From positions 1 to 28,525 of IMG/VR virus record IMGVR_UViG_643348547_000003: DNA of 28,525 nt; one strand, written 5' to 3'. The notes under the pieces are model-generated. The model saw only the letters and a list, made by a program, of their open reading frames with translations. It made no database searches and was not told where the DNA came from. Position 1 is the stretch's first letter, and the number at the start of each line of letters is the position of its first letter. The DNA is from a virus (Duplodnaviria; Heunggongvirae; Uroviricota; Caudoviricetes). The translations under genes were made by a program, and so were the position numbers. Shown in pieces: positions 4,243 through 28,525 of this stretch.

Positions 4243-4459
4243 TCTTTATTTTAAAGTGCTGACACATGCTGAAAACGCGCTCGTTTGTGGCAAAAATATG
4301 CGAGAAATCTTATCAACCTGGCTTGATGGGACAACAAATGCGGAACACGATGAACGGGATGCTAATTTAGCTGGAGCGTTAATTACGTTACTTGATCCTG
4401 TCATCAAAGAGCTGGATGAAGCTATAAAAATACACGACCAGAGCTATACCGAAGAATAA
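4235..4459 (+). CDS. Hypothetical protein
   Basis: 74 aa. Start overlaps the upstream stop; AGGAGG six nt upstream of the ATG. Confidence 0.5.
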   Translation: MNDLYFKVLTHAENALVCGKNMREILSTWLDGTTNAEHDERDANLAGALITLLDPVIKELDEAIKIHDQSYTEE

Positions 4460-4461
4460 AA

Positions 4462-4749
4462 ATGAAAAATAAATTTTCTGGCTTTATTGCCAGCGGTCAA
4501 GCTCATTCAAAAATCAGCCTTGGGGATATTTTCAAAGATAGCTATGGCTATCGGGTAAAGATTATTTCGGTTGATGATCGCCGTGTCTCTTATTTGCGTG
4601 ATGGTTATGATTTTGAATGTGTTATGCCGCGTCAGCAGTTCGAAAGAGATTTCATTCTGGTAAAAAATTGCAAGACAGATAATCAGAGGCGTGCCGCAGG
4701 CTATATCCGCAAAATTCGGGCAATGTTAGTTGCCGGAGGTAATAAATGA
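4462..4749 (+). CDS. Hypothetical small protein (possibly DUF4222-like; uncertain)
   Basis: 95 aa, tightly packed in the operon. The segment YRVKIISVDDRRVSYLRDGYDFECVMPRQQFERDFILV resembles what I recall of small conserved satellite/prophage proteins, but no search was run. Confidence 0.5.
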   Translation: MKNKFSGFIASGQAHSKISLGDIFKDSYGYRVKIISVDDRRVSYLRDGYDFECVMPRQQFERDFILVKNCKTDNQRRAAGYIRKIRAMLVAGGNK

Positions 4750-4928
4750 AACGTGCTCCGAACTTAAAATACCAACCGCGCGACAAAATGACAGAAGTCA
4801 TCATTTTTGCTGGCAGTGATGCCTAGAGCCATGCAAAAGAATGGAATGAATGGGCGGGTAAGCATATTGCAGCAGATGATACACCACCAGTAATTCTGGG
4901 TACGGAACAACTGGAAAACCTGGATGAT

Positions 4929-6566
4929 ATGCAAATTATCGATGAAGGCCGTCATTATGTGCGTGTTTATCGTGCCGGAAAGATTGCAGAGAAAAATCTG
5001 ACGAAGGTTGCGACATTACTTGCTATTGCAGGCGTAAAGGAAGCACGTTGTTACCGTAGCTTTGTTGATCGAGAGCCTGAAGACTGGACTCCGCGCCTTG
5101 TCGGCCTAAAAGCTGAAGCGGAGCATGGGGAAAGTCTGGTGATTGAACTGCCAGTGAAGAAGGCTGAGCGCAAAAATGACGAGCGTGCTTCATCTTTGGC
5201 GTTGAATCAGATGGGGGCCAGCCAGCGCGGTGAAGTTCTCCTTGCACATTACGGCGGCGAACTGGCAATCAATGCCGACTCTGACACCGTTCATCATTAC
5301 AACGGCGTTGTATGGGAGCCGGTTCAGGATAAAGAGTTACAGCGTGCTATGGCGCAGATTTTCATTGATGCGGAGATCAGCTATTCGCAGAACGCTATTA
5401 AATCGGCGGTAGATACCATGAAGTTAAGTTTGCCTGTAATGGGGAATACAGCCCGTAACCTGATTGGATTCAGTAACGGGGTATTTGATACCAGAACTGG
5501 TAATTTTCGGGAGCATAACAAAAACGACTGGTTGTTAATTGCCAGTGAATTACCTTTCAGCCCACCAGCAGAGGGGGAAACGCTGGCAACACATGCGCCG
5601 AATTTCTGGAAGTGGTTGCGCCGTTCGGTGGCTGAGAATGACCGCAAGGCAGATCGCGTACTGGCGGCATTATTCATGGTGCTGGCGAACCGGTACGACT
5701 GGCAGTTATTCATTGAGGTAACAGGGCCGGGGGGAAGTGGTAAAAGTGTGATGGCGGAGATTTGCACCATGCTGGCGGGTAAGGCTAATACAGTATCAGC
5801 AAGCATGAAGGCGCTGGAAGATGCAAGGGAACGTGCGTTAGTGGTTGGCTTTTCGCTGATTATCATGCCGGATATGACCCGCTACGCTGGTGATGGGGCA
5901 GGGATTAAGGCCATTACAGGCGGTGACAAGGTGGCAATTGACCCGAAACACAAAGCCCCCTATTCAACGCGTATTCCGGCAGTAGTGCTGGCGGTTAACA
6001 ATAACGCCATGTCATTCAGTGACCGCAGCGGGGGGATCTCACGTCGTCGGGTGATATTCAATTTTTCGGAAGTTGTACCGGAGAACGAACGCGATTCGAT
6101 GCTGGCGGAAAAAATAGAAGGTGAGCTGGCGGTAGTGATTCGTCATCTGCTTACAAGGTTTGCTGATCAGGACGAAGCCAGACGCCTGTTATATGAGCAG
6201 CAGAAATCTGAAGAAGCACTGGCGATAAAGCGAGAGGGGGATTCGCTGGTGGACTTCTGCGGTTATCTCATGGCATCGGTAATGTGTGATGGCCTGTTAG
6301 TGGGTAATGCTGAAATTGTGCCATTCAGCCCACGCAGGTATCTCTATCATGCCTATCTGGCTTATATGAGGGCACATGGGTTTGGTAAACCTGTAACACT
6401 GACGCGCTTCGGTAAAGATATGCCGGGGGCAATGGCGGAATATGGCAGGGAGTATATGAAACGGAAAACGAAGCACGGTTTGCGTTCAAACGTGACCCTG
6501 ACGGAGGAATCAGAAGACTGGATGCCATCATGTGTATCGGTCACTAATGACGATAGCAAAAATTAA
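4929..6566 (+). CDS. Replication protein, P4 alpha C-terminal / D5-like SF3 helicase-NTPase family
   Basis: 545 aa. Walker A motif VTGPGGSGKSV, Walker B-like LIIMPDMT, and a D5_N-like region (VVWEPVQDKELQRAMAQIFID). No obvious toprim primase domain. Immediately followed by an iteron array. Confidence 0.8.
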   Translation: MQIIDEGRHYVRVYRAGKIAEKNLTKVATLLAIAGVKEARCYRSFVDREPEDWTPRLVGLKAEAEHGESLVIELPVKKAERKNDERASSLALNQMGASQRGEVLLAHYGGELAINADSDTVHHYNGVVWEPVQDKELQRAMAQIFIDAEISYSQNAIKSAVDTMKLSLPVMGNTARNLIGFSNGVFDTRTGNFREHNKNDWLLIASELPFSPPAEGETLATHAPNFWKWLRRSVAENDRKADRVLAALFMVLANRYDWQLFIEVTGPGGSGKSVMAEICTMLAGKANTVSASMKALEDARERALVVGFSLIIMPDMTRYAGDGAGIKAITGGDKVAIDPKHKAPYSTRIPAVVLAVNNNAMSFSDRSGGISRRRVIFNFSEVVPENERDSMLAEKIEGELAVVIRHLLTRFADQDEARRLLYEQQKSEEALAIKREGDSLVDFCGYLMASVMCDGLLVGNAEIVPFSPRRYLYHAYLAYMRAHGFGKPVTLTRFGKDMPGAMAEYGREYMKRKTKHGLRSNVTLTEESEDWMPSCVSVTNDDSKN

Positions 6567-6580
6567 ACTTATGGAATAAC

Positions 6581-6801
6581 TGTTCACCACTGTTCACCCT
6601 GTCATAAATATCTTTTATATCAGTATATTATAGGGTGAACAGTTATTTATGAACTGTTCACCAAACTATTCACTGTTCACCTTTTTGATTGTTTATTGAG
6701 CTTCAAGGGTGAACAGTGGTGAACAGTTGGTGAATAGTTTTTGTGAAACTGTTCACCCATTAACATTATGAATTAAAAGAGAAAATATCAAAAGGTGAAC
6801 A
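6581..6801. repeat. Iteron array (putative satellite replication origin): about 9 copies of TGTTCACC / GGTGAACA
   Basis: TGTTCACC at 6581, 6591, 6655, 6674 and 6750. Reverse-orientation GGTGAACA at 6634, 6708, 6718 and 6794. This octamer is the iteron I recall from the P4 ori and crr, bound by the alpha protein. Confidence 0.7.
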
Positions 6802-6853
6802 GGTGAAGGGTTAAAACGCAAAAATTTTAATTTACTGCTGTGAGATAAAGCCT

Positions 6854-7099
6854 ATGACAGCGAAGCACACAAAAAAATCACAATCGCACGCCCTTGATTT
6901 GACGGAACACTGGTTAAGGGTGTCGATAAAAATCATCGACCGCAACGCCGGGGAAGGATACGCGAAAGCACATCCCGAACTGATTAGCGCATTCATGACA
7001 ACGGCGGCTGCAAACTTTGCCACTCTGACCGAACGGGAGATTGCTGAAGCGGAGGAAGTGACAACAATCAATATTAAGTCCGGAGAGCAGGCAGCATGA
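6854..7099 (+). CDS. Hypothetical protein
   Basis: 81 aa. Stop overlaps the start of the SSB-like gene (ATGA). Weak ribosome-binding site. Confidence 0.45.
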   Translation: MTAKHTKKSQSHALDLTEHWLRVSIKIIDRNAGEGYAKAHPELISAFMTTAAANFATLTEREIAEAEEVTTINIKSGEQAA

Positions 7100-7545
7100 C
7101 GGCGCAAATATCAGTTTACGGGCGGTTGGTGGACGACCCGCAGACAAAACAGACCAGCAAGGGCACCCCCATGACGCTGGCGCGTATGGCGGTATCACTG
7201 CCCTGCAGTCAGTCGGATGACGGTCAGGCGACGATGTGGTTATCTGTCCTGGCGTTTGGCAGACAAGCCGACGCGCTGGCAAAGCATCACAAAGGCGAAC
7301 TCCTGAGCGTGGCGGGTAATATGCAGGTGAGCCAGTGGACTGGACAGAACGGTGAAACGCGGCAGGGCTGGCAGGTTATCGCAGACAGCGTAATCAGTGC
7401 GCGAACGGTGCGACCGGGCGGCAAAAAAGGTCAACAGGGTCAGGCTACTGACGCACTGAACAGAGCAAAACAACAGGCAGATCAGCAAGGAAGCCATCCA
7501 CCAGTGGGAGATAATGAGCAATGGGGAGATGATATTCCGTTTTAA
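7096..7545 (+). CDS. Single-stranded DNA-binding protein (SSB-like)
   Basis: 149 aa. N-terminal OB-fold-like region, a Gly/Gln-rich linker and a C-terminal acidic tail ending DDIPF, the hallmark of the bacterial SSB C-terminus. Confidence 0.7.
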   Translation: MTAQISVYGRLVDDPQTKQTSKGTPMTLARMAVSLPCSQSDDGQATMWLSVLAFGRQADALAKHHKGELLSVAGNMQVSQWTGQNGETRQGWQVIADSVISARTVRPGGKKGQQGQATDALNRAKQQADQQGSHPPVGDNEQWGDDIPF

Positions 7546-7563
7546 ATATTGCCAATAAAAAAG

Positions 7564-7588
7564 GCCGGAAAAAAATAAATTTTCCGGC
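7564..7588 (+). terminator. Stem-loop downstream of the SSB-like gene (weak terminator candidate)
   Basis: GCCGGAAAA (7564..7572), 7-nt loop, TTTTCCGGC (7580..7588). No clear 3' U-tract. Confidence 0.35.
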
Positions 7589-7762
7589 ATGCTACATAAA
7601 TCCCGACCAAAGGGAGTGAAGATATTAACACTAATTATCCGCGCTGGAGTTGTTATCCCAAAACTTTATACAACATTGCACTCGGTTGCATGTATTCGCA
7701 TGACAAATATCGGTGATAGCATATATCCACAATTATTTTTAATGAATGCAAAGAGGATGCGT

Positions 7763-8803
7763 ATGGTTGATTTATATTCGCCTACCCAGCTTGTACAGGT
7801 GGTTAATGCTGTAGATGTACAAAAACAACTAAATGCGTTGTTTACCAGTTTGTTTTTTACTCGCTCGGTAATGTTTGAATCGCGCGATATTATTCTTGAT
7901 ACAATCGACGATCCAAATATCCCAATTGCAGCGTTTTGTTCTCCTATGGTAGGTAGTAAAGTTTCACGTGACGAAGGGTACGAATCAAAAACAATTCGTC
8001 CAGGCTATATGAAGCCGAAAAGCAGCATTGATCCAAATAAGTTAGCTGTGCGCCCTGCTGGTGTATCACCTGAGCAATACAATGCTTTTGGAGCGCGTAA
8101 TATTAAAGTTAAACAGGCGATTGTAAATCAGGCTAAAGCTATTCGTGCACGTATTGAATGGTTTGCCGTTCAGGCAATCACAACGGGGAAAAATATCATT
8201 GAGGGCGATGGTATTGAACGTTATGAGCTGGACTGGAATATAAAACCACAAAATATCATCACTCAGTCTGGCGGTACTGAGTGGTCAGGTAAGGATAAAG
8301 AAACTTTTGATCCAAATGATGATATTGAGAGCTACGCAGAATTTAGTGAGGGCGTCACTAATATCATCATTATGGGCGGTAATGTATGGAAGAAATACCG
8401 TTCATTCAGAGCGATAAAAGAGGCTCTGGATACCCGTCGTGGTTCTAATTCCGAACTGGAAACGGCCCTTAAAGACCTTGGTGATTCGGTGAGTTTTAAA
8501 GGGTATATGGGCGATGTTGCGATTGTTGTATACAGCGGGCGTTATACCGACGAGGACGGAACTGAAAAACATTTCCTTGATCCTGATTTGATGGTGCTTG
8601 GCAATACGGCTCTTCAGGGGATTGTCGCCTATGGCGGTATTCAGGATCCGGAGCTAATCCGAATGGGGCTGACTAAAGCCGAACTTGCACCGAAAAACTA
8701 TATTGTGCCTGGTGATCCGGCTATTGAATATGTGCAGACACATTCAGCACCACAGCCAATACCGGCCCGCATCAATCGTTTTGTTACCGTTCGCATTGGC
8801 TAA
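7763..8803 (+). CDS. Major capsid protein, phage lambda gpE family (divergent homolog)
   Basis: 346 aa from the ATG at 7763 (AAGAGGA five nt upstream). Alignable along its length to lambda gpE, with shared motifs NIITQSGGTEWS, DTRRGSNSELETA and GDVAIVVYSG. The 5' extension of the track ORF (7589..7762) is probably untranslated. Confidence 0.85.
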   Translation: MVDLYSPTQLVQVVNAVDVQKQLNALFTSLFFTRSVMFESRDIILDTIDDPNIPIAAFCSPMVGSKVSRDEGYESKTIRPGYMKPKSSIDPNKLAVRPAGVSPEQYNAFGARNIKVKQAIVNQAKAIRARIEWFAVQAITTGKNIIEGDGIERYELDWNIKPQNIITQSGGTEWSGKDKETFDPNDDIESYAEFSEGVTNIIIMGGNVWKKYRSFRAIKEALDTRRGSNSELETALKDLGDSVSFKGYMGDVAIVVYSGRYTDEDGTEKHFLDPDLMVLGNTALQGIVAYGGIQDPELIRMGLTKAELAPKNYIVPGDPAIEYVQTHSAPQPIPARINRFVTVRIG

Positions 8804-9165: not shown

Positions 9166-9549
9166 ATGCAGAATGATTACAATGACCTTAAGCCACTTGC
9201 CGAAATGATGTACCCGAATCCAGCTGTAGAGGAATTAAAAGCTATCGCTGACAAAATGTGTTTAAGCGAGCGCCTTGTTGATATGAATCAGGTGATGGAA
9301 ATTACAACCCTGAGTCGGCGTACACTGCTAAACCTTGAGGCTAGTGGAGAGTTCCCGGAGCGTGTGCAGGTTACGGAAGGGCGTAAGGCCTGGTATTTAA
9401 GTGAAGTGATCGACTGGATAAATAATATTCCTCGCGCTTCTGAATATTGCCGCGTACCTGTCCCAAAAAAGCCAGATGCGGCGCTATGCCTCAAGATTGA
9501 GCGTGTACGCCGCAATGCACGGGATGGTCGCTATAAGCTGATTGGTTGA
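9166..9549 (+). CDS. AlpA-family HTH regulator with an N-terminal extension
   Basis: 127 aa. Core MEITTLSRRTLLNLEASGEFPERVQVTEGRKAWYLSEVIDWI matches the AlpA/HTH_17 pattern. Second AlpA-like gene in the island. Confidence 0.65.
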   Translation: MQNDYNDLKPLAEMMYPNPAVEELKAIADKMCLSERLVDMNQVMEITTLSRRTLLNLEASGEFPERVQVTEGRKAWYLSEVIDWINNIPRASEYCRVPVPKKPDAALCLKIERVRRNARDGRYKLIG

Positions 9550-9557
9550 TGAAATTA

Positions 9558-9581
9558 GGGCCCGCTCTGGCTGGCGGGTCC
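9558..9581 (+). terminator. GC-rich stem-loop after the second AlpA-like gene
   Basis: GGGCCCGC, 8-nt loop, GCGGGTCC, followed by TTTCC. Imperfect stem and short U-tract. Confidence 0.3.
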
Positions 9582-9713
9582 TTTCCGGCGATCTGACAGG
9601 CTACGGGGCGTCAGGCGCGCAGTTTTTTGCTATTTGTGAAAATTTTCCTGTTTAAGGCGTTTCCGTTCTTCTTCGCCGTAACTTAATGTTTTTATTAAAA
9701 ACACCCCCTAAAA

Positions 9714-9770
9714 AGAAAGGAAACGACAGGTGCTAAAAACAGGCTTTTTGGCCTCTGTCGTTTCCTTTCT
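9714..9770. other. Long perfect 16-bp inverted repeat (structured RNA or bidirectional terminator) in a roughly 600-bp non-coding spacer
   Basis: AGAAAGGAAACGACAG (9714..9729), 25-nt loop with an inner mini-hairpin, CTGTCGTTTCCTTTCT (9755..9770). Lies between convergent genes. Confidence 0.4.
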
Positions 9771-10147
9771 CTGGTTTTGTTGCCATCCGTCGCGGTCTAT
9801 CACCAGAAAAAATCTTATCCCTGAGTTGAATCAGGCCCTATTCAGAAGCGGTCAATAACGCGCCGCTAGCTTCACTTCATAGTTATGGCCTACTTCTGCG
9901 CCATTGCAATTGCTTTATGCGCCTTGATGGTGGAATATAGAGCAAGCAGTTTGCGAATAACAAAGTTTCATATGTTTTTTGCTGTGTGGCTAGACAACTT
10001 TACAGCAGAGTTTTGTGTCAGTTCTTTATGTGTGCAAGCAAGCTTGAGGGGGAATTACTTCTGGCTGCATCTTTGCTTAAGAACAGCAATAATTTAATCA
10101 TAAGGAAATGTATATAAGCCTGATTAAATTTCAGGCTTATTGAAATG

Positions 10148-11290
10148 TTAACTCCTTATTAGAGAGTAAATTCCATCCTCTTTAAGGAAGTCTATTACTT
10201 CAAAGAATGAGATAAAGAATTCCCAAGAACCAAAAGCATATGCATGAATTTCGTAAGGTGCAAAATGGAATCTAAATCCATCACTATTTATTGTGAACGA
10301 GTCTAAGTTACTATCCATGATACCCGTTGCAAACGTACTAATGTCGTCCTCACTTGGTTTTTCACCAGTTTTCTCCCAAAATTCACGAGCTGATTCAGAG
10401 ATTATTTTTTGTTTTATCTTATTAATCGCTTCTTGCTCTTTCCCTTCGGTAAATACATCCCATAAACTAAATTTGTATGCGTAGTCATCCTTGGTTATTA
10501 CGAAATTACTAGTTTCAAAATGACTGTTAGGGTGTGCTGCTCCCGCACCATACCAATGTACGGAATGAAGGATGCTCATAACATTTTCGTTACAGTATGA
10601 GATGTTATAACTTTCATTATAGGAACTAGTGTAAGTGTGTTTATATTCTTCATCCCAATATGGTGTTCCTGGCCATAGTGATGTGCGTTCAGAAAAAATA
10701 TGTAAAGCCGCTTTTCCTGAAAAGTAATCACTAATGAGTTTTGCTGATTTCGGTAATGTATGGCTTTCAATTCTTGGATATGCTATTTCAATTTCATGCC
10801 CTGGGATCTTGTTATATTCTTCCTTGAAAACCTCGCTGCTAAAGTTAAATGGCCCATAAGTGATACCTTGAGATATTTCAAGTTTTTGTTGCGATGCTGC
10901 TAATCTTAAAGATCTAGATAAAATGTCCCAACCATCATTTCTCTTAAAATCAATGAATTGGAGCTTGCTTGATATGTAGGCGGGTACTTCGCAATCATCA
11001 ATAAGTAATGGTATCACGAACACATCATCTGGTTTGTAATACTTTAGTTTATCAATGGCGTCATTTATTTCGCGGCGAATATAACCATTTTTCTGAGTGC
11101 TCACTTTGCTAAGGATAAGGATTATCAAGTTTGAATTAGCGAAGTTTTTTTGGATTTCATAATCCCAGTTTACGCCAGCGGGTATATCTTTTACATCCAT
11201 CCAAGGGGAATATCCTCCACTTTTTAGCCTTTCATAGATTTCTTCAGTTATCGTTTCATCTTCTTTTGCATGAGCAAGAAAAATTTTCAT
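10148..11290 (-). CDS. TIR-domain protein with a C-terminal DUF3298/RsiV-like domain (candidate antiphage effector)
   Basis: 380 aa in an AT-rich segment. The N-terminal 140 aa or so carry TIR-like hallmarks (KIFLAHAKEDE...W.D...I..G......I.ILSKVS...NGYIRREI). The C-terminal region contains HWYGAGAAHPNSHFETSNF...LWDVF, resembling the Y-x-GGAHG signature of DUF3298. SD-like AAGGA upstream of the start. No partner gene adjacent. Confidence 0.75.
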   Translation of the reverse strand: MKIFLAHAKEDETITEEIYERLKSGGYSPWMDVKDIPAGVNWDYEIQKNFANSNLIILILSKVSTQKNGYIRREINDAIDKLKYYKPDDVFVIPLLIDDCEVPAYISSKLQFIDFKRNDGWDILSRSLRLAASQQKLEISQGITYGPFNFSSEVFKEEYNKIPGHEIEIAYPRIESHTLPKSAKLISDYFSGKAALHIFSERTSLWPGTPYWDEEYKHTYTSSYNESYNISYCNENVMSILHSVHWYGAGAAHPNSHFETSNFVITKDDYAYKFSLWDVFTEGKEQEAINKIKQKIISESAREFWEKTGEKPSEDDISTFATGIMDSNLDSFTINSDGFRFHFAPYEIHAYAFGSWEFFISFFEVIDFLKEDGIYSLIRS

Positions 11291-20618: not shown

Positions 20619-23600
20619 ATGGGTAAAGGCAGCAGTAAGGGGCATACCCCGCGCGAAGCGAAAGATAACCTGAAATCCACGCAGCTGTTGAGTGCGATTG
20701 ATGCCATCAGCGAAGGGCCGATTGAAGGTCCGGTGGATGGATTAAAAAGCGTGCTGCTGAACAGTACGCCGGTGCTGGACAGTGAGGGGAATACCAATAT
20801 CTCCGGCGTCACGGTGGTGTTCCGGGCAGGTGAGCAGGAGCAGTCACCGCCGGAGGGATTTGAATCCTCCGGTTCCGAGACGGTGCTCGGTACGGAAGTG
20901 AAATATGAAACGCCGATCACCCGGACCATCACGTCGGCAAACATCGACCGTCTGCGCTTTACCTTCGGTGTACAGGCACTGGTGGAAACCACCTCAAAGG
21001 GAGACAGGAATCCGTCGGAAGTCCGCCTGCTGGTTCAGATACAGCGTAACGGTGGCTGGGTGACGGAAAAAGACATCACCATTAAGGGCAAAACCACCTC
21101 GCAGTATCTGGCCTCGGTGGTGGTGGATAACCTGCCGCCGCGCCCGTTCAATATCCGGATGCGCAGGATGACGCCGGACAGCACCACAGACCAGCTGCAG
21201 AACAAAACGCTCTGGTCGTCATACACCGAGATCATCGATGTGAAACAGTGCTACCCGAACACGGCACTGGTCGGCGTACAGGTGGACTCGGAGCAGTTCG
21301 GCAGCCAGCAGGTGAGCCGTAATTATCATCTTCGCGGGCGCATTCTGCAGGTGCCGTCGAACTATAACCCGCAGACGCGACAATACAGCGGTATCTGGGA
21401 CGGAACGTTAAAACCAGCATACAGCAACAACATGGCCTGGTGTCTGTGGGATATGCTGACCCACCCGCGCTACGGCATGGGGAAACGTCTTGGTGCGGCG
21501 GATGTGGACAAATGGGCGCTGTATGTCATCGGCCAGTACTGCGACCAGTCAGTGCCGGACGGCTTTGGCGGCACGGAGCCGCGCATCACCTGTAATGCGT
21601 ACCTGACCACACAGCGCAAGGCGTGGGATGTGCTCAGTGATTTCTGCTCGGCGATGCGCTGTATGCCGGTATGGAACGGGCAGACGCTGACGTTCGTGCA
21701 GGACCGACAGTCGGATAAGGTGTGGACCTATAACCGCAGTAATGTGGTGATGCCGGATGATGGCGCGCCGTTCCGCTACAGCTTCAGCGCCCTGAAGGAC
21801 CGCCATAATGCCGTTGAGGTGAACTGGATTGACCCGGACAACGGCTGGGAGACGGCGACAGAGCTTGTTGAAGATACGCAGGCCATTGCCCGTTACGGTC
21901 GTAATGTCACGAAGATGGATGCCTTTGGCTGTACCAGCCGGGGGCAGGCACACCGCGCCGGGCTGTGGCTGATTAAAACGGAACTGCTGGAAACGCAGAC
22001 CGTGGATTTCAGCGTGGGCGCAGAAGGGCTTCGCCATGTGCCGGGCGATGTTATTGAAATCTGCGATGATGACTATGCCGGTATCAGCACCGGTGGTCGC
22101 GTGCTGGCGGTGAACAGCCAGACCCGGACGCTGACGCTCGACCGTGAAATCACGCTGCCATCCTCCGGTACCACGCTGATAAGCCTGGTTGACGGAAGTG
22201 GCAATCCGGTCAGCGTGGAGGTTCAGTCCGTCACCGACGGCGTGAAGGTAAAAGTGAGCCGTGTTCCTGACGGTGTTGCTGAATACAGCGTATGGGGGCT
22301 GAAGCTGCCGACGCTGCGCCAGCGACTGTTCCGCTGCGTGAGTATCCGTGAGAACGACGACGGCACGTATGCCATCACCGCCGTGCAGCATGTGCCGGAA
22401 AAAGAGGCCATCGTGGATAACGGGGCGCACTTTGACGGCGAACAGAGTGGCACGGTGAATGGTGTCACGCCGCCAGCGGTGCAGCACCTGACCGCAGAAG
22501 TCACTGCAGACAGCGGGGAATATCAGGTGCTGGCGCGATGGGACACACCGAAGGTGGTGAAGGGCGTGAGCTTCCTGCTTCGCCTGACCGTGGCAGCGGA
22601 TGACGGCAGTGAGCGGCTGGTCAGCACGGCCCGGACGACGGAAACCACATACCGCTTCACGCAACTGGCGCTGGGAAACTACAGGCTGACAGTCCGGGCG
22701 GCAAATGCCTGGGGGCAGCAGGGCGATCCGGCATCGGTATCGTTCCGTATTGCCGCACCGGCAGCGCCGTCGCGGATTGAGCTGACGCCGGGCTATTTTC
22801 AGATAACCGCCACGCCCCATCTTGCCGTTTATGATCCGACGGTACAGTTTGAGTTCTGGTTCTCGGAAAAGCGGATTGCGGATATCAGGCAGGTTGAAAC
22901 CACAGCCCGCTATCTTGGCACGGCGCTGTACTGGATAGCTGCCAGTATCAATATCAAACCGGGCCATGATTATTATTTTTACATCCGCAGTGTGAACACC
23001 GTTGGCAAATCGGCATTTGTGGAGGCTGTTGGCCAGCCGAGTGATGATGCATCCGGCTATCTGGATTTTTTCAAAGGCGAGATAGGGAAAAGCCATCTGG
23101 CTCAGGAGCTGTGGACGCAGATTGATAACGGTCAGCTTGCGCCTGACCTGGCTGAAATCAGGACGTCCATTACGGATGTCAGCAATGAAATCACGCAGAC
23201 CGTCAATAAGAAACTGGAAGACCAGAGTGCGGCAATTCAGCAGATACAGAAGGTTCAGGTTGATACAAATAATAACCTGAACAGCATGTGGGCTGTGAAG
23301 CTGCAGCAGATGCAGGACGGACGCCTTTATATCGCGGGTATTGGTGCCGGTATTGAGAACACCCCTGACGGCATGCAGAGTCAGGTGCTGCTGGCGGCGG
23401 ACAGGATTGCGATGGTTAATCCTGCGAATGGCAACACAAAGCCGATGTTTGTTGGTCAGGGCGATCAGATATTCATGAACGAAGTGTTCCTGAAATATCT
23501 GACGGCTCCCACCATTACCAGCGGCGGTAATCCTCCGGCATTTTCCCTGACACCGGACGGGCGGCTGACGGCGAAAAATGCCGATATCAGCGGTAACGTG

Positions 23601-24098
23601 AATGCGAACTCCGGGACGCTCAACAACGTCACGATTAACGAGAACTGCCGGGTTCTGGGAAAACTGTCCGCGAACCAGATTGAAGGCGATCTCGTTAAAA
23701 CAGTGGGTAAAGCTTTCCCCCGGGACTCCCGTGCACCGGAACGGTGGCCATCAGGGACCATTACCGTCAGGATTTATGACGATCAGCCGTTTGACCGGCA
23801 GATTGTTATTCCGGCGGTGGCATTCAGCGGCGCTAAACATGAGAGAGAGCATACTGATATTTACTCCTCATGCCGTCTGATAGTGCGGAAAAACGGTGCT
23901 GAAATTTATAACCGTACCGCGCTGGATAATACGCTGATTTACAGTGGCGTTATTGATATGCCTGCCGGTCACGGTCACATGACGCTGGAGTTTTCGGTGT
24001 CAGCATGGCTGGTAAATGACTGGTATCCCACAGCAAGTATCAGCGATTTGCTGGTTGTGGTGATGAAGAAAGCCACTGCAGGCATCACGATTAGCTGA
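20619..24098 (+). CDS. J: Lambda-like J (central tail fibre / host specificity protein) with a variant C-terminal region
   Basis: 1159 aa. The N-terminal 800 aa or so follow lambda gpJ ([24 protein letters not shown]...). The last 330 aa or so diverge from the lambda C-terminus as I recall it. Confidence 0.92.
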
Positions 24099-24165: not shown

Positions 24166-24765
24166 ATGCGTAAATTATGTGCTGTTATTCTGTCCGCAGT
24201 AGTCTGGCTGGTTGCCGCTGGTACGCCAGCGAGCGCAGCAGAGCATCAGTCCACACTAAGCGCCGGGTATCTTCAGACCCACACTGATATGCCAGGAAGC
24301 GATAATCTGAACGGGATTAACGTGAAATACCGTTATGAATTTACGGACACGCTGGGGCTGATTACGTCTTTCAGTTATGCCGACGCAGAAGATGAACAAA
24401 AAACGCATTACAGCGATACCCGCTGGCATGAAGATTCCGTGCGTAACCGCTGGTTCAGCATGATGGCGGGGCCATCTGTACGCGTGAATGAATGGTTCAG
24501 TGCTTATGCGATGGCAGGTGTGGCTTACAGCCGTGTGTCGACGTTCTCCGGGGATTATCTCCGCGTAACTGACAACAAGGGGAAAACGCACGATGTGCTG
24601 ACCGGAAGTGATGACGATCGCCACAGCAACACGTCTCTGGCGTGGGGAGCTGGCGTGCAGTTTAACCCGACCGAATCCGTGGCCATTGATATTGCTTATG
24701 AAGGCTCCGGCAGTGGCGACTGGCGCACTGACGGTTTCATCGTGGGTGTCGGTTATAAGTTCTGA
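24166..24765 (+). CDS. lom: Lom outer-membrane protein (Ail/Lom family)
   Basis: 199 aa with signal peptide MRKLCAVILSAVVWLVAAGTPASA and a beta-barrel sequence ending GVGYKF, matching lambda Lom. Confidence 0.9.
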   Translation: MRKLCAVILSAVVWLVAAGTPASAAEHQSTLSAGYLQTHTDMPGSDNLNGINVKYRYEFTDTLGLITSFSYADAEDEQKTHYSDTRWHEDSVRNRWFSMMAGPSVRVNEWFSAYAMAGVAYSRVSTFSGDYLRVTDNKGKTHDVLTGSDDDRHSNTSLAWGAGVQFNPTESVAIDIAYEGSGSGDWRTDGFIVGVGYKF

Positions 24766-24818: not shown

Positions 24819-24829
24819 GTGGAGTGGAT

Positions 24830-27229
24830 ATGGCAGCAGTAAAAATCTCAGGTGTGCTGAAAGATGGTGCGGGAAAACCAATACAGAACTGCACTATTCA
24901 ACTGAAGGCAAAGCGTAACAGCACCACGGTACTGGTGAACACGGTGGCCTCTGAAAATCCGGATGAAGCCGGGCGTTACAGCATGGATGTTGAGTATGGC
25001 CAGTACAGCGTTATCCTGCTTGTTGAAGGTTTTCCGCCTTCACATGCCGGAACCATTACCGTCTATGAAGGTTCCAGACCAGGTACGCTGAATGATTTTC
25101 TCGGTGCCATGACGGAAGATGATGTCATGCCGGAGGCATTGCGTCGTTTTGAGGAAATGGTGGAAGAAGCGGCACGCAACGCCGAAGCCGCCTCTCAGAG
25201 CGCAGCGGCGGCAAAGAAATCCGAAACTGCAGCGGCATCATCGAAGAACGCGGCGAAAACCTCAGAAACGAATGCAGCTAATAGTGCACAGGCGGCAGCG
25301 ACCTCACAGACTGCATCAGAAAACTCCGCGACAGCAGCCAAAAAATCAGAAACCAACGCGAAAAATAGCGAGACAGCCGCAAAGACGAGCGAAACCAACG
25401 CAAAGTCCAGCCAGACGGCAGCGAAGACCAGCGAAACGAATGCCAAAGCCAGTGAAACTGCGGCAAAAAACAGCCAGGTTGCAGCAGCCCAAAGCGAGAG
25501 CGCGGCAGCCGGTTCTGCGACTTCAGCAACTGGATCAGCAACTGCTGCGGCTAACAGCCAGAAAGCTGCGAAGACGAGTGAAACTAACGCAAAGTCCAGC
25601 CAGACGGCAGCGAAGACCAGCGAAACGAATGCCAAAGCCAGTGAAACTGCGGCGAAAAACAGTCAGGATGCAGCAGCCCAAAGCGAGAGTGCCGCAGCTG
25701 GTTCTGCAAGTGCGGCGGCTTCTTCTGCCTCTGCATCAGCCAACAGTCAAAAAGCTGCAAAAACCAGTGAAACCAACGCAAAGGCGAGCGAGACTGCGGC
25801 GGCTAACTCAGCGAAAGCATCGGCAGCAAGCCAGACGGCTGCAAAAGCAAGTGAAGACGCAGCCAGAGAGTATGCAAGCCAGGCTGCGGAGCCGTATAAA
25901 CAAGTTTTGCAGCCGCTTCCCGATGTGTGGATACCGTTTAACGATTCACTGGATATGATTACGGGCTTTTCGCCGTCATATAAAAAGATTGTTATTGGTG
26001 ATGATGAAATAACGATGCCTGGCGATAAGGTTGTAAAGTTTAAACGCGCATCAACTGCCACATATATCAATAAATCAGGCGTATTTAGTGTTGCTAAAAT
26101 TGATGAGCCACGATTTGAAAAAGAAGGTTTATTGATTGAAGGACAGCGCACTAACTATTTTGTTAAATCCAATATCCCCGCTGAATGGACGAGTACCAGC
26201 AATATCGATAAAACTAATAATGGTGTTGATGAATTTGGTTTTTCATATGCCAAAATGCGAACAAAAGATAATATGACAGGACAATCATCTGCACTTAGTC
26301 TGCATACATGCAGTGCATCCCGGGGGATTGATGTTAGTGGCGATAATAAGTATTGCACTGTTTCATGCAGGGTTAAAGCTCCTGATGGTCTTCGTTGTCG
26401 TTTGCGTTTTGAAAAATACGATGGGTCGGTTTATACATTTTTAGGAGATGCTTATTTAACTTTCGGAACTCTGATAATAGAAAAAACTGGCGGAGCAGCC
26501 AATAGAATAGCAGCTACTGCAACTAAAGATCCGGTTACAGGGTGGATTTTCTATGAGGCAACTATAGAAGCTGTTGAAGGTGAAACCTTAATTGGCGCAA
26601 TGATTCAGTATGCGCCGAAAAAAGGTGGTGTAACTGAAGCGGGAGATTATATTTACCTTGCAACACCACAATTTGAAAACGGCGGATGTGCTTCATCTTT
26701 TGTTATTACGACAACTGTACCCGCAACCCGCTCCAGTGATATGGTGACGATCCCAACTGAAAATAATATCTATAATAGACCGCTTACGTGCCTGGTCGAG
26801 GTTAATAGAAATTGGGGCGATATTCCTCCTAATGTAGCACCGCGTATTTTTGATTTTTCTGGTGTGCCACCTATTGAGTCAATTACATACGCTTTTAACA
26901 CAACTGAGAAATATTACGGTCAGCTTTATATGCAAACTTATAAAGCGTCGACAAGTACTTACGTTTCTAGTGTGTTTGCTGGTCGAACTGATGTTCGAAA
27001 ATTCATTGGTGGTTTTAATATTTATTCTGATGGTACTAAACGAGTAGTTTCTAACGGTGAGGCTACTAAAACCATGAAAACGGAGTGGACGGGCGTAAAA
27101 ACACGGACCTTTATTCGAATTGGAGGTCAAGCCACATCGGGAACTCGTCATCTATTCGGCCATTTGAGAAATCTTCGTCTCTGGCATAAAGAATTAACTG
27201 ATGCGCAAATGGGGGAGAGTATTAAATGA
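24830..27229 (+). CDS. stf: Side tail fibre protein (Stf-like): lambda-type N-terminus, Ala/Ser/Thr-rich repeat shaft, non-lambda lectin-like C-terminal domain
   Basis: N-terminus AVKISGVLKDGAGKPIQNCTIQLKAKRNSTTV...HAGTITVYEGS parallels lambda Stf. ATG at 24830 with GGAG upstream (the track start at 24824 is GTG). The C-terminal 400 aa or so are AT-rich and end in a Laminin_G_3-like motif (HLFGHLRNLRLWHKELTDAQM). Confidence 0.85.
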   Translation: MAAVKISGVLKDGAGKPIQNCTIQLKAKRNSTTVLVNTVASENPDEAGRYSMDVEYGQYSVILLVEGFPPSHAGTITVYEGSRPGTLNDFLGAMTEDDVMPEALRRFEEMVEEAARNAEAASQSAAAAKKSETAAASSKNAAKTSETNAANSAQAAATSQTASENSATAAKKSETNAKNSETAAKTSETNAKSSQTAAKTSETNAKASETAAKNSQVAAAQSESAAAGSATSATGSATAAANSQKAAKTSETNAKSSQTAAKTSETNAKASETAAKNSQDAAAQSESAAAGSASAAASSASASANSQKAAKTSETNAKASETAAANSAKASAASQTAAKASEDAAREYASQAAEPYKQVLQPLPDVWIPFNDSLDMITGFSPSYKKIVIGDDEITMPGDKVVKFKRASTATYINKSGVFSVAKIDEPRFEKEGLLIEGQRTNYFVKSNIPAEWTSTSNIDKTNNGVDEFGFSYAKMRTKDNMTGQSSALSLHTCSASRGIDVSGDNKYCTVSCRVKAPDGLRCRLRFEKYDGSVYTFLGDAYLTFGTLIIEKTGGAANRIAATATKDPVTGWIFYEATIEAVEGETLIGAMIQYAPKKGGVTEAGDYIYLATPQFENGGCASSFVITTTVPATRSSDMVTIPTENNIYNRPLTCLVEVNRNWGDIPPNVAPRIFDFSGVPPIESITYAFNTTEKYYGQLYMQTYKASTSTYVSSVFAGRTDVRKFIGGFNIYSDGTKRVVSNGEATKTMKTEWTGVKTRTFIRIGGQATSGTRHLFGHLRNLRLWHKELTDAQMGESIK
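25379..25709 (+). repeat. Tandem duplication (about 189-bp unit, 2 near-identical copies) inside stf, within a wider KTSETNAK-type repetitive shaft
   Basis: Protein segment AAKTSETNAKSSQTAAKTSETNAKASETAAKNSQ(V/D)AAAQSESAAAGSA occurs twice, 63 aa apart. Shorter SETNAK-containing repeats extend across about 25211..25860. Confidence 0.6.
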
Positions 27230-27507
27230 AAGATTTAACGCTCAAATTTGCAGACAGGGCCGACTTTTCGGCCTTTATGGAGAGTATTGGCTATTATGAT
27301 GACGAGTCGATGCAGGATGATATTCTTATTGACGTGATAGGTAACGTGTACAAAGAAACCGGAGAACTGACTGAAGATGGCGAACCGGTATGTGTTAAGG
27401 AGGACGGATATTTTGTAAACGTGCGCATCATTAATGATGCAAAAAAATCGTCAATATTCGATAAATACGCGATTGTTGTTGAGCATCAACTTCGTGGCTG
27501 GATGTGA
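27226..27507 (+). CDS. Hypothetical small acidic protein, translationally coupled to stf
   Basis: 93 aa. The ATG overlaps the stf stop (ATGA) with GGGGGAGAG upstream. No resemblance to lambda Tfa. Confidence 0.55.
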   Translation: MKDLTLKFADRADFSAFMESIGYYDDESMQDDILIDVIGNVYKETGELTEDGEPVCVKEDGYFVNVRIINDAKKSSIFDKYAIVVEHQLRGWM

Positions 27508-27516
27508 GGGAGACAA

Positions 27517-28221
27517 ATGGCTACATCGACAGTAATTCCAGGAGACATCACCACGTTAAAGGGAGATGTCAGTAAAGCCAAGGAAGATATTTCCTCAATT
27601 AACGGAAAAGTATCAACGCTTCAGACTGATATGACCAGTGCAAAGCAGGATATCAGCACCAGATACACAAAAACTGAAGTTGATAATAAGCTGAAAAACA
27701 AAGTGGAAGTGAACGATCTGGAAAGTGGTCGTTATGGTGGAGATTTTTACCCGCTGACTGGTCGTGAAGCGTTTTATTTGTGGGGATTGGGCACGACTAC
27801 AGCGGCGGCAAACCTTTATCTTAATCCTGACCCCGCAATTTCGTCTGTACTGCGGTCCACATCGTCTATCCGCTATAAACATTCAGTAGAGACGATAGAT
27901 TCGGAGCACGCCGATCTCATTTTCAGGATGCGCCCTGTGTGGTACAGGTCGCAATGCGAAAATGACAGGCGCGATTGGGGATTCTATGGATTGATTGCCG
28001 AGGAAGTAGGAGAAATTGCCCCTCAGTTTGTTCACTGGCGACCAGCTAACGAGAATGATGCTCCTGAAGCTATTTCCAGCAATGGCCTTGTTGCCGAAGG
28101 TGTAATGTACGAACGTCTGGTTGTTCCACTGATTCACCATATCCAGAAACTGACTGAAAGAGTTGATGAACTTGAGTCAGAATTAAAGTTGTTATCAACT
28201 TCCCGAAGCGATATCGGATAA
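27517..28221 (+). CDS. Short coiled-coil fibre-like protein with a C-terminal intramolecular chaperone (peptidase S74-like) domain
   Basis: 234 aa. N-terminal heptad-like region (GDVSKAKEDISSINGKVSTLQTDMTSAKQDISTRYTKTEVDNKLKNKVEVNDL). C-terminal SSIRYKHSVETID...GFYGLIAEEVGEIAPQFV...ERVDELESELKLL resembles the autoproteolytic chaperone domain of endosialidase-type tail fibres. GAGGGAG ribosome-binding site. Confidence 0.6.
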   Translation: MATSTVIPGDITTLKGDVSKAKEDISSINGKVSTLQTDMTSAKQDISTRYTKTEVDNKLKNKVEVNDLESGRYGGDFYPLTGREAFYLWGLGTTTAAANLYLNPDPAISSVLRSTSSIRYKHSVETIDSEHADLIFRMRPVWYRSQCENDRRDWGFYGLIAEEVGEIAPQFVHWRPANENDAPEAISSNGLVAEGVMYERLVVPLIHHIQKLTERVDELESELKLLSTSRSDIG

Positions 28222-28231
28222 AGGAGGAGTA

Positions 28232-28525
28232 ATGGATATAACACCTTTCCTTCATGCACTTTGTGCTGTGGCTGCGCAGGTACTGGTTGGTCTTTTTACC
28301 GGAAACTGGGCTTACGGGGCGATAGCCGGTTGTACGTTCTTCATTGCGCGTGAACATACCCAGGCAGAATATCGCTGGATTGAAATGTTCGGGCATGGCA
28401 AGCGAATGAATATGCCGTGGTGGGGCGGTTTTGATCCGCGCGCGTGGGATGTGGCAAGTCTGATGGATTTTGCTGTGCCGGTGGTGGCGTGTCTGCTGGT
28501 CTGGCTGTTGGTTAATCGTGGGTGA
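28232..28525 (+). CDS. Hypothetical small membrane protein (2 predicted TM helices)
   Basis: 97 aa with a strong SD (AAAGGAGGAG) upstream. Hydrophobic segments LHALCAVAAQVLVGLFTG and LMDFAVPVVACLLVWLLV. Stop codon at the last 3 nt of the window. Confidence 0.55.
   Translation: MDITPFLHALCAVAAQVLVGLFTGNWAYGAIAGCTFFIAREHTQAEYRWIEMFGHGKRMNMPWWGGFDPRAWDVASLMDFAVPVVACLLVWLLVNRG

Follow-up and report, generated by a model that had tools for sequence, protein, structure and literature searches.

A portable two-part side tail fibre cassette, very probably, and a probable membrane cargo gene behind stf in an E. coli prophage

Which genes take the place of tfa at the end of a lambda-type late operon, and what may their products build? 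The window analysed here, a stretch of 28,525 nucleotides, carries stf at the same late-operon position after J and lom as in lambda, and its product has the same N-terminal attachment domain (PF08400). In contrast to lambda Stf, the C-terminal half of the protein is unrelated and appears lectin-like at its end; an extra anchored fibre gene is present, and tfa persists just as a 3' remnant downstream. The three genes behind stf are a widespread, largely uncharacterised fibre cassette, composed, as we read them, of a small partner, a short add-on fibre and membrane cargo. All four ORFs described in an earlier note (stf and ORFs of 93, 234 and 97 aa, here orf93, orf234 and orf97) were found at the same coordinates. 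The host context is an E. coli prophage at the DLP12 site, which in K-12 carries a defective element.

The cassette occupies the position of tfa: the identical CE10 locus still has a 3' tfa remnant, 20 nt past the end of the window. The replacement of tfa proposed in the earlier note is thus borne out, as is its statement that the three ORFs include no Tfa homologue: neither Pfam nor NCBIfam gave a Tfa-type family match to orf93, orf234 or orf97. The fibre-Tfa pairs of lambda, Mu and P2 likewise place a small gene immediately behind the fibre gene, one that the tip requires or that is associated with it, but Tfa lacks sequence or fold homology to the small genes of the window. The same note had called the genes non-canonical, yet the arrangement is not unusual: of 5426 complete E. 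coli genomes 719 have the block, which is also known from at least six phage lineages, and PhiR49_1 and IdasGreatGrand, both deposited as phage genomes, carry the same cassette. The three ORFs are real genes and not chance reading frames, given that all are under purifying selection among E. coli alleles (dN/dS of 0.28 for orf93, 0.16 for orf234 and 0.17 for orf97) and that homologues number in the hundreds for each.

The proximal side tail fibre Stf (801 aa; 24824..27229, + strand) matches Pfam phage_tail_N with E=6e-67 and phrog_1419 over its full length. It begins with the PF08400 tail-attachment domain, followed by a repeat shaft rich in Ala and Ser, a receptor-binding half that varies, and a conserved C-terminal tail; residues 437-637 match GTA_spike_fiber (NCBIfam). 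In E. coli prophages the C-terminal part falls into at least 11 clusters at 35-76% identity. The last 49 residues (27080..27226, + strand; ...IRIGGQ..G.RHLFGH.RN.R.WHK.LTDAQ.GE) are kept in all Stf clusters and across phage families, the conserved stretch covering about the last 35-49 residues, and this type of tail is present in 203 phage records. A sub-threshold match to Laminin_G_3 (E=6e-4, profile positions 87-149 of 151) suggests that the tail probably forms the terminal strands of a lectin domain of ConA-like type; the equivalent domain is named "galectin-like" in PMC11990801. We propose this conserved tail as the partner surface for orf93.

The start codon of orf93 (27226..27507, + strand; phrog_1361, E=2e-46) and the stop codon of stf share the sequence ATGA at 27226-27229, as the earlier note had described. 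The gene encodes a small acidic alpha/beta protein of 93 aa (pI 4.31; 20 D+E versus 10 K+R) with no Pfam or NCBIfam match, and its AF2 model (pLDDT 83.5) gave generic fold matches only. orf93 follows directly behind a tail-bearing fibre gene in every locus examined. Among phage records listing coordinates for both, the fibre tail and orf93 are adjacent wherever both were located, in lambdoid, T1-like, Dhillonvirus, 9g-like, T5-like and rV5-like phages, and their taxonomic spread is nearly equal (orf93 in 183 phage records). Since orf93 is retained without a following distal fibre in Lambda_2E9, PhiR41_1 and CarlMeissner, its primary partner would be the fibre end, where we tentatively regard it as a joint or assembly factor.

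The next gene, orf234 (27517..28221, + strand), is preceded by GAGGGAG and its 234-aa product aligns to phrog_3299 (E=5e-141, profile positions 1147-1384 of 1385). It can be read as a minimal distal fibre consisting of an anchor, about five coiled-coil heptads, a small tip and a C-terminal chaperone predicted to cleave itself off. The N-terminal anchor MATSTVIPGDITTLKGDVSK (27517..27576, + strand), a proposed docking plug, is common to several longer distal fibres under the consensus MAT.TVIP.DIT.LK. The 345/346-aa allele has this anchor as well and apart from it matches orf234 just weakly, at the chaperone end; the anchor is found also in PeterMerian gp29, ESCO3 gp80, IrisVonRoten Gp24, mar004NP2 gp051 and KarlBarth gp30; its carriers span 98 to 589 aa and have unrelated bodies. 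A heptad coiled coil occupies residues 11-49 (27547..27663, + strand), with 11 consecutive a/d positions (I L V A I I V L M A I) and weak matches to the coiled coil of the P22 needle gp26 and to L-shaped tail fibre repeats of 8hqz. Of the mature coiled coil of about 110 aa that the earlier note envisaged, the length stands, at 115 residues, but the unbroken a/d heptads cover only residues 11-46 and give way to a non-coil tip of about 50 residues.

The intramolecular chaperone region takes up residues 116-234 (27862..28218, + strand). An S74-like domain had been suspected here and was confirmed by profile search, residues 116-172 matching Peptidase_S74 (PF13884) with E=4.6e-6 and 27.3 bits (gathering score 22), and also by conservation of the Ser/Lys dyad: among 46 homologues Ser116 is kept in 44 and Lys121 and Glu125 in all 46. 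Ser116 is predicted as the cleavage site and Lys121 as the general base. The best alignment of the region is to the "L-shaped tail fiber assembly" chain of 8hqz (residues 109-221, E=7e-7). The S74 modules of K1F endosialidase and T5 pb1 are similar in their above-threshold profile match, Ser...Lys(+5) dyad and C-terminal place behind a trimeric segment, whereas the passenger of orf234 is exceptionally short (115 residues) and its cleavage is a prediction.

The order of fibre gene, overlapping gene of about 93 aa and anchored gene recurs in PhiR49_1, 2G7b, PeterMerian, ESCO3, IrisVonRoten, mar004NP2, swan01 and KarlBarth, and anchor-bearing genes come after an orf93 homologue in every locus examined. 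DNA alignment delimits a near-identical block formed by the last stf codons, orf93 and the start of the third gene (~50 nt), with divergence on both sides. These comparative data on gene order, linkage and a shared anchor strongly support the accessory-fibre module that the earlier note had suggested, and the locus is very probably a portable two-part side tail fibre cassette. Within it, orf234 is likely to be a structural distal fibre. As a whole, a two-part fibre cassette accompanied by one cargo gene is the best explanation, held with moderate confidence.

The closest counterpart is the Gp22-Gp23-Gp24 lateral tail fibre locus of the T5-like phage IrisVonRoten (Bas32), modelled in the second BASEL paper (PMC11990801), so that a drawing of a proximal plus a distal fibre is already known for this cassette type. 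In the published AlphaFold-Multimer model, Gp24 sits on the proximal fibre Gp22, from which a galectin-like C-terminal domain protrudes; the passages covered do not discuss a role of the small protein. IrisVonRoten and the window share the three-gene order with overlapping stop and start codons; the same conserved tail (...RHLFGHIRNFRIWHKELTD...) closes the proximal fibre, the orf93 homologue has 92 aa (37% identity, tblastn), and the distal fibre begins with the same anchor MVTKTVIPTDITKLK and ends with an intramolecular chaperone. They differ in that the IrisVonRoten distal fibre is a "T-shaped" protein of 574 aa with two receptor-binding domains, as opposed to a stub of 234 aa, that the proximal fibre is mounted on a T5-type collar rather than a lambda-type tail tip, and that the 97-aa gene is missing. 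In the branched L-shaped tail fibres of DT57C (LtfA/LtfB) and phiEco32 (gp14/gp15) (PMC4728585, PMC10713586), a second S74-chaperoned fibre likewise rides on the first via a short conserved N-terminal segment. LtfA of DT57C ends in an S74 chaperone and LtfB was proposed to dock on an internal region of LtfA, with no small intervening gene described (PMC4728585); a T5-type anchor query (residues 1-26) found no match in DT57C.

We infer the following assembly. Stf would act as proximal fibre, with its N-terminal domain on the tail and a lectin-like domain at its end. orf93 would be synthesised in step with Stf through the overlapping stop and start codons and may bind the conserved Stf end as joint or assembly factor, in a role comparable to that of the T4 knee gp35 or of a Tfa retained at the tip. 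Three orf234 chains could zip into a short coiled coil, while the S74 chaperone would fold the small tip and then cut itself off at Ser116, to leave a mature protein of about 115 residues. The anchor would plug onto the Stf end or the orf93 joint and thereby give the fibre a second, exchangeable tip. The long tail fibre of T4, with the gene order 34-35-36-37, also joins a proximal to a distal fibre through a small joint, the knee gp35, which serves as a functional analogy only; we know of no homology between gp35 (372 aa) and the joint candidate of the window.

Other readings of the fibre genes share part of this evidence. orf234 might be non-structural, essentially an S74 domain on its own with a coiled-coil handle, which assists Stf trimerisation or folding in trans and is then discarded, with orf93 as co-chaperone, both jointly replacing Tfa in function. 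The chaperone domain makes up more than half of orf234 and leaves a mature part of just 115 residues, BASEL and other annotators call the orthologues "lateral tail fiber chaperone" or "chaperone of endosialidase", and the cassette stands at the former place of tfa. This reading is nevertheless unlikely: S74 chaperones are known to work in cis, on their own chain, as in endosialidase and T5 pb1; the anchor is common to clearly structural distal fibres of 345-589 aa; and purifying selection acts on the mature half too (dN/dS 0.19, with 0.115 in the chaperone region). The 234-aa and 346-aa alleles moreover reassort with several Stf receptor-domain clusters, which disfavours a cognate Stf chaperone, and many phages keep Stf and orf93 without orf234, so that Stf folding cannot depend on it. 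If orf234 were instead the functionless, decaying C-terminal end of a far longer fibre (phrog_3299 has 1385 positions) that recombination had left behind in a defective prophage, this would account for the alignment to just the last ~240 profile positions, for longer fibres such as P0036 and P0045 that end in the same tip and chaperone module, and for the DLP12 site with adjoining tfa remnants. This reading is close to refuted by the gene's own ATG, Shine-Dalgarno (SD) sequence and conserved anchor, by its dN/dS of 0.16, by the same cassette in the two deposited phage genomes and by stand-alone orthologues of 224-231 aa in T1-like phages (55-57% identity), 48 of the 63 phage records that match the PeterMerian protein covering at least 80% of its length.

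It is possible, at a lower weight than we would give an even choice, that orf93 is purely a Tfa-like assembly chaperone of the lectin-ended fibre, absent from the virion, and that the distal fibre docks straight on Stf. orf93 always accompanies the conserved fibre tail and is translationally coupled to it, distal fibre or not, it went undetected in shallow virion proteomics, and the published IrisVonRoten model is described as Gp24 attaching to Gp22. Against this, orf93 shows no sequence or fold similarity to Tfa, anchor genes co-occur with it in every locus examined, anchor and orf93 lie within one conserved DNA block in E. coli phages, and its IrisVonRoten homologue is annotated "tail fiber protein" in RefSeq.

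The last gene of the cassette, orf97 (28232..28525, + strand; phrog_1443), encodes a conserved small inner-membrane protein of 97 aa. Its SD sequence AAGGAGG (28221..28227, + strand) overlaps the orf234 stop codon and lies 4 nt before the ATG, in agreement with the strong SD noted earlier; the two transmembrane segments noted with it agree with the two strongly hydrophobic segments, but the AF2 model (pLDDT 92) has helices at residues 4-23, 26-53 and 74-96, and orf97 is probably a three-helix protein. The family (583 clusters) has 22 invariant columns and a near-invariant central loop (REHTQAEYRW...PWWGGFD), and orf97 stays ~60% identical beside unrelated neighbouring fibres. No significant Pfam, NCBIfam or PADLOC family, no PDB fold match for the model and no lipobox were found. 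The earlier note had considered orf97 a possible moron, for example one for superinfection exclusion. It is not obviously a classical one: a simple consensus scan found no + strand promoter within or directly upstream of it and no terminator, it is packed tightly behind the fibre genes, and its family is highly conserved beside varying receptor-binding proteins.

The family lies immediately behind the final receptor-binding or assembly gene in lambdoid phages, in the P22-like JEP4, in the P2-like phiHAP-1 and in HP1-like prophages, and in Aeromonas it occurs among non-phage chromosomal genes; orf97 is for these reasons probably accessory cargo behind receptor-binding genes, outside the fibre. 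Also a cellular gene, it would be carried by temperate phages in this slot and most likely act at the cell membrane for phage or lysogen, for example by blocking the entry of other phages; cargo of this exclusion type is one possible function among others. A functional tie to the receptor-binding proteins, as a late envelope-altering factor against virion trapping on debris or a membrane helper for S74 fibres, is doubtful. The gene's constant place, often with overlapping stop and start codons and in three tail morphotypes, an upstream gene ending in S74 in three contexts, and the lack of an own promoter in the scan, from which transcription with the late genes is probable, would suit such a tie. 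Across species genomes, however, S74 occurs in only 3 of the 39 upstream genes, many of them non-phage; orf97 is absent from the T1-like, 9g-like and T5-like cassette versions examined, it shows no sequence co-variation with the fibres, and the Aeromonas setting likewise argues against it. The slot resembles that of the cargo genes behind receptor-binding genes, P2 Z/fun, phi80/N15 cor, HK97 gp15 and lambda lom, from which orf97 differs in lacking homology, a lipobox or an own promoter (consensus scan) and in its family's presence among non-phage chromosomal genes. In phiHAP-1 it is flanked by the tail fibre assembly gene and the sheath gene, the place where P2 carries Z/fun.

The window is the late region of a lambda-like prophage, in which J (20619-24098) and lom (24166-24765) are followed by an stf homologue of 801 aa (24824-27229) carrying the PF08400 'prophage tail fibre N-terminal' domain (E=6e-67). 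The fibre gene is trailed by three short genes. The ATG of the 93-aa ORF (orf93, 27226-27507) overlaps the stf stop as ATGA (27226-27229) and its product is acidic (pI 4.31, 20 D+E versus 10 K+R), exactly as the earlier note had described. The 234-aa ORF (orf234, 27517-28221) starts 9 nt later, with GAGGGAG four bases 5' of its ATG, and the 97-aa ORF (orf97, 28232-28525) lies a further 10 nt downstream, with AAGGAGG four bases 5' of the ATG, and ends on the final base of the window. Side or lateral tail fibres determine the O-antigen or capsule types that a phage can pass and are also the parts swapped to retarget lambda-based delivery particles. The cassette considered here, comprising stf and the three genes behind it, is common: at least 80% of the DNA at 27000-28525 was found in 719 of 5426 complete E. 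coli genomes, about one in eight, and the cassette also occurs in several of the phage groups represented in BASEL. The same interval is 100% identical in E. coli O7:K1 CE10 and in three further genomes. Of the four cassette genes, two are annotated without a function, and the labels of a third vary between chaperone, tail fibre and hypothetical protein.

The proposal that this cassette lies downstream of stf in place of tfa is borne out by CE10, because in that genome the 3' fragment of a tail fibre assembly gene starts 20 nt past the orf97 stop. The CE10 prophage adjoins ompT-envY-ybcH-nfrA, a neighbourhood which we take to be the DLP12 site. Just past the point where the window ends (9546-10743 of the CE10 locus), two 3' tail fibre assembly gene fragments and a DinI fragment flank a ybcY-like methyltransferase gene, after which ompT, envY, ybcH and nfrA follow; an older stf-tfa module seems to have been overwritten there. 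As anticipated, none of the three ORFs is a Tfa homologue: no match of orf93, orf234 or orf97 to a Tfa-type family was obtained in Pfam (E up to 0.1) or NCBIfam, and comparison with solved Tfa structures (Caudo_TAP, lambda/Mu/P2 type) gave no fold similarity. What orf93 has in common with the Tfa proteins of lambda, Mu and P2 is positional only: it lies directly 3' of the fibre gene, which it overlaps by ATGA and with which it would be co-expressed. The observation made from the sequence was confirmed as a whole, but its interpretation proved right only in part, as detailed below for the individual proteins.

Base composition changes within stf, where GC falls from about 0.55 to 0.38-0.42 near 25,900 (within 25700-26100), remains low through orf93 and the first half of orf234 (to about 27,700) and then rises to about 0.47-0.49. 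The drop comes right after the 189-bp tandem repeats of the Ala/Ser-rich Stf shaft and looks like a mosaic junction; the profile would fit a joint region that was imported along with the receptor half of Stf. The repeat (25375-25801; 2.3 copies, 84% matches), within which periods of 42 and 21 bp are nested, codes for the Ala/Ser/Thr-rich shaft and gives rise to long spurious ORFs in other frames, among them one of 279 aa on the + strand (25119-25958) and one of 146 aa on the - strand (25195-25635). In CE10 (NC_017646.1), RefSeq divides positions 5825-8230 of the locus (window 24824-27229) into two 'incomplete' pseudogenes and a hypothetical protein; the gene itself is an intact 2406-nt ORF identical to that of the window, and the split annotation appears to be an artefact of the repeat-rich middle. 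In the deposited phage PhiR49_1 lom is divided into two ORFs (local positions 2161-2774), whereas the lom of the window is intact (199 aa).

The S74-like chaperone domain postulated for the 234-aa protein was upheld by profile search: Peptidase_S74 (PF13884) matches residues 116-172 of orf234 with 27.3 bits, above the Pfam gathering score of 22 (E=4.6e-6). Its best solved relative is the 8hqz 'L-shaped tail fiber assembly' chain (residues 109-221, E=7e-7), and a weak MYRF match was also obtained. Among 46 aligned homologues, Ser116 is kept in 44 and Lys121 and Glu125 in all. The Ser...Lys(+5) arrangement is that of the self-cleaving intramolecular chaperones of endosialidase and T5 pb1; orf234 matches it with Ser116 and Lys121, in the context SSIRYK, and cleavage is predicted. 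The 346-aa allele of the same gene reads HSDRDLKDNI at the corresponding position. The chaperone domain reaches the C-terminus. In front of it, residues 11-46 show a heptad pattern without breaks, with I L V A I I V L M A I at eleven consecutive a/d positions, and the protein presumably forms trimers. The mature part had been described as coiled coil; this holds for residues 11-46, but about 50 non-coil residues then separate the heptads from the predicted cleavage site.

In PHROGs, orf234 aligns only to the last ~240 of the 1385 positions of phrog_3299, from which it might be taken for the decayed remnant of a long fibre. This reading was rejected because T1-like phages, among them PeterMerian and swan01, have orthologues (224-231 aa, 55-57% identity) as ordinary stand-alone genes, because a comparison of 23 E. 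coli alleles gave a dN/dS of 0.16 (0.19 for the mature segment, 0.12 for the chaperone), and because the protein has its own conserved N-terminus. Its first ~20 residues (MATSTVIPGDITTLKGDVSK) also open proteins that have otherwise unrelated bodies, including the 2G7b and ESCO3 allele (345-351 aa; lambdoid and Nonagvirus, respectively), IrisVonRoten Gp24 (574 aa) and mar004NP2 gp051 (589 aa), both from T5-like phages, and KarlBarth gp30 (98 aa; Dhillonvirus). Short N-termini that stay constant while the bodies behind them vary are typically docking segments. At all loci examined, the gene bearing this anchor lies directly 3' of an orf93 homologue.

A precedent for such an arrangement is provided by the T5-like phage IrisVonRoten. 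In the second BASEL paper (PMC11990801), Gp24 is modelled as a distal fibre seated on Gp22, a proximal fibre from which a 'galectin-like' C-terminal domain protrudes; for this type of cassette, attachment of a distal to a proximal fibre is known only from this published AlphaFold-Multimer model. The locus studied here shares three elements of the Gp22-24 set, namely a proximal fibre with a conserved lectin-like tail, a small (~90-aa) phrog_1361 gene overlapping the fibre stop and a third gene starting with the M[AV]T.T.IP.DIT.LK anchor. Given the anchor common to distal fibres, the position next to orf93 and the published model of Gp24 on Gp22, orf234 is best read as the smallest member of the Gp24-type distal-fibre family. 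The cassette is of the proximal plus distal lateral fibre type already drawn for IrisVonRoten, here found in a lambda-type prophage and with the smallest distal element known. The DT57C type of branched fibre is different: there the carrier fibre LtfA ends in S74, whereas the Stf of the window ends in the lectin-like tail and gives no S74 match, and the second fibre is proposed to dock on an internal region of LtfA. When DT57C was searched with the T5-type anchor query, only residues 27-66 of the query matched, inside ltfA, and the anchor proper had no match; on the result of this search LtfB was discarded as a source of the anchor, the matching residues being a common internal fibre motif. 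In KarlBarth (local positions 4270-5149) the 98-aa anchored gene overlaps a 196-aa 'tail fiber' ORF downstream of it; an S74-type site was seen in neither sequence, and the pair represents a distal fibre that has been split or else a variant made of two chains.

The 93-aa protein belongs to phrog_1361 (E=2e-46) and is homologous to bas32_0023; its overlap or adjacency with a fibre gene is conserved in all lineages examined. The relation between fibre and orf93 was explored in 80 viral contigs whose 93-aa gene has at least 90% identity with that of the window. The C-terminal 400 residues of their Stf proteins fall into at least 11 clusters, with 35-76% identity between clusters, and all of them share the final ~30 residues, RHLFGH.RN.R.WHK.LTDAQ.GE. 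The third gene of these contigs has two alleles (about 234 or 346 aa), each paired with several Stf clusters. In a DNA alignment of six phages, identity rises to nearly 100% just 5' of the stf stop, stays there across orf93 and ceases ~50 nt into the third gene. The conserved fibre tail can be aligned across six fibres and shows sub-threshold similarity to the last strands of the ConA-like Laminin_G_3 domain (E=6e-4, and E=0.0027 for the ESCO3 fibre). In the phage collection 183 records contain the orf93 family and 203 the fibre tail, with adjacent coordinates and a nearly identical taxonomic breakdown that covers lambdoids, Drexlerviridae, Dhillonvirus, Queuovirinae, T5-like phages and rV5-like myoviruses. 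Several records labelled as Campylobacter or Listeria phages (MG065692, MG065654, MG065652, MG065676, OR847733 and similar) contain fibre cassettes highly identical to those of T5-like or rV5-like phages of E. coli and are probably mislabelled or contaminated deposits.

In Lambda_2E9 and its relatives, as well as in PhiR41_1 and in CarlMeissner, the fibre tail and orf93 are kept as a pair in genomes without the anchored gene, which argues that the fibre end is the primary partner of orf93 and the anchored distal protein an optional third element. This linkage favours a role of orf93 as a joint or assembly factor at the lectin-like end of the fibre. The main rival is a pure chaperone that does not enter the virion; the virion proteomics in PMC6563131 is shallow with respect to the small protein and the distal fibre and bears little on this choice. 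A 'Rosetta stone' search for fusions of orf93 among 1.84 billion representatives returned only free-standing proteins of about 90-110 aa as true matches; a few hits to long proteins reflect short repeated acidic stretches. The three RefSeq proteins of the cassette are named in no paper found in the literature search, and the Gifsy-1 and Eligo lambda-engineering papers do not cover it.

The last gene, orf97, had been described as a two-TM protein with a strong SD; the latter was confirmed by the AAGGAGG motif, but the model (pLDDT 92) contains three helices, at residues 4-23, 26-53 and 74-96. Its protein search returned 583 clusters. The protein is placed in phrog_1443, has no significant family in Pfam, NCBIfam or PADLOC, those of known superinfection-exclusion and defence systems included, and its fold had no PDB match below E=1 by Foldseek (best E=3.6). 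Across 51 diverse members 22 columns are invariant and concentrate in a central loop (R40 E41 Q44 A45 E46 Y47 R48 W49 ... P62 W64 G65 G66 F67), and dN/dS is 0.17.

In the phage elements examined the family stands directly after the last receptor-binding or assembly gene. In lambdoid phages it follows an S74 gene or the 93-aa gene; in the P22-like JEP4 it overlaps the tailspike stop, with an integrase downstream; in the P2-like phiHAP-1 it lies between the fibre assembly gene and the sheath gene; in HP1-like prophages of Leclercia and Aeromonas it comes after fibres ending in S74, and in a Comamonas prophage after J and a 72-aa gene. It is also carried by PhiR41_1, a 108-kb circular record encoding ParA, in which a lambda-type J and a split stf are directly succeeded by the homologues of orf93 and orf97 (PV340561.1 65241-74522); this record looks like a phage-plasmid with the same fibre end. 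The examined T1-like, 9g-like and T5-like versions of the cassette do not have orf97. A dedicated partnership with S74 fibres was discarded, since S74 was present in only 3 of the 39 upstream genes at species-representative loci, where the upstream neighbour is often a non-phage gene (Pirin, DNA ligase, cytidine deaminase); in Aeromonas rivipollensis the homologue is located among non-phage chromosomal genes.

The suggestion that the membrane protein is a moron agrees with its variable presence and with homologues outside phages, but a promoter and terminator of its own were not found: a simple consensus scan of the CE10 locus, crude as it is, gave no + strand promoter in or directly upstream of orf97 and no terminator. 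We read orf97 not as a fibre component but as a conserved cargo gene that came from cells and travels at the end of receptor-binding modules, and it would be dispensable for virion production. By analogy of position, exclusion at the inner membrane may be its most likely role, and the conserved polar loop hints at a more specific activity.

A broader reading, which we consider rather doubtful, combines two claims: that the fibre end and orf93 form a universal 'socket' for the 'plug' anchor of exchangeable distal fibres, and that orf97 represents a new host-derived inner-membrane family. The plug could be the M[AV]T.T.IP.DIT.LK N-terminus and the socket the lectin-like fibre end together with the 93-aa protein, a joint protein family that would be previously undescribed and unrelated to Tfa. 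Such a joint would make second receptor-binding tips exchangeable among sipho- and myoviruses from at least six lineages, would explain the movement of distal tips between unrelated phages and would give a rule for grafting new ones onto lambda-type fibres. The orf97 family would, on the same reading, stand behind the receptor-binding genes of temperate phages of three morphotypes and have a conserved catalytic or binding loop. As a strongly conserved membrane protein common to bacteria and temperate phages, it constitutes a separate lead. A 2836-bp contig of a Collinsella sp. MAG (Actinobacteria) encodes a protein with 96% identity to the 97-aa protein of E. coli, most likely as a result of E. 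coli contamination in the bin.
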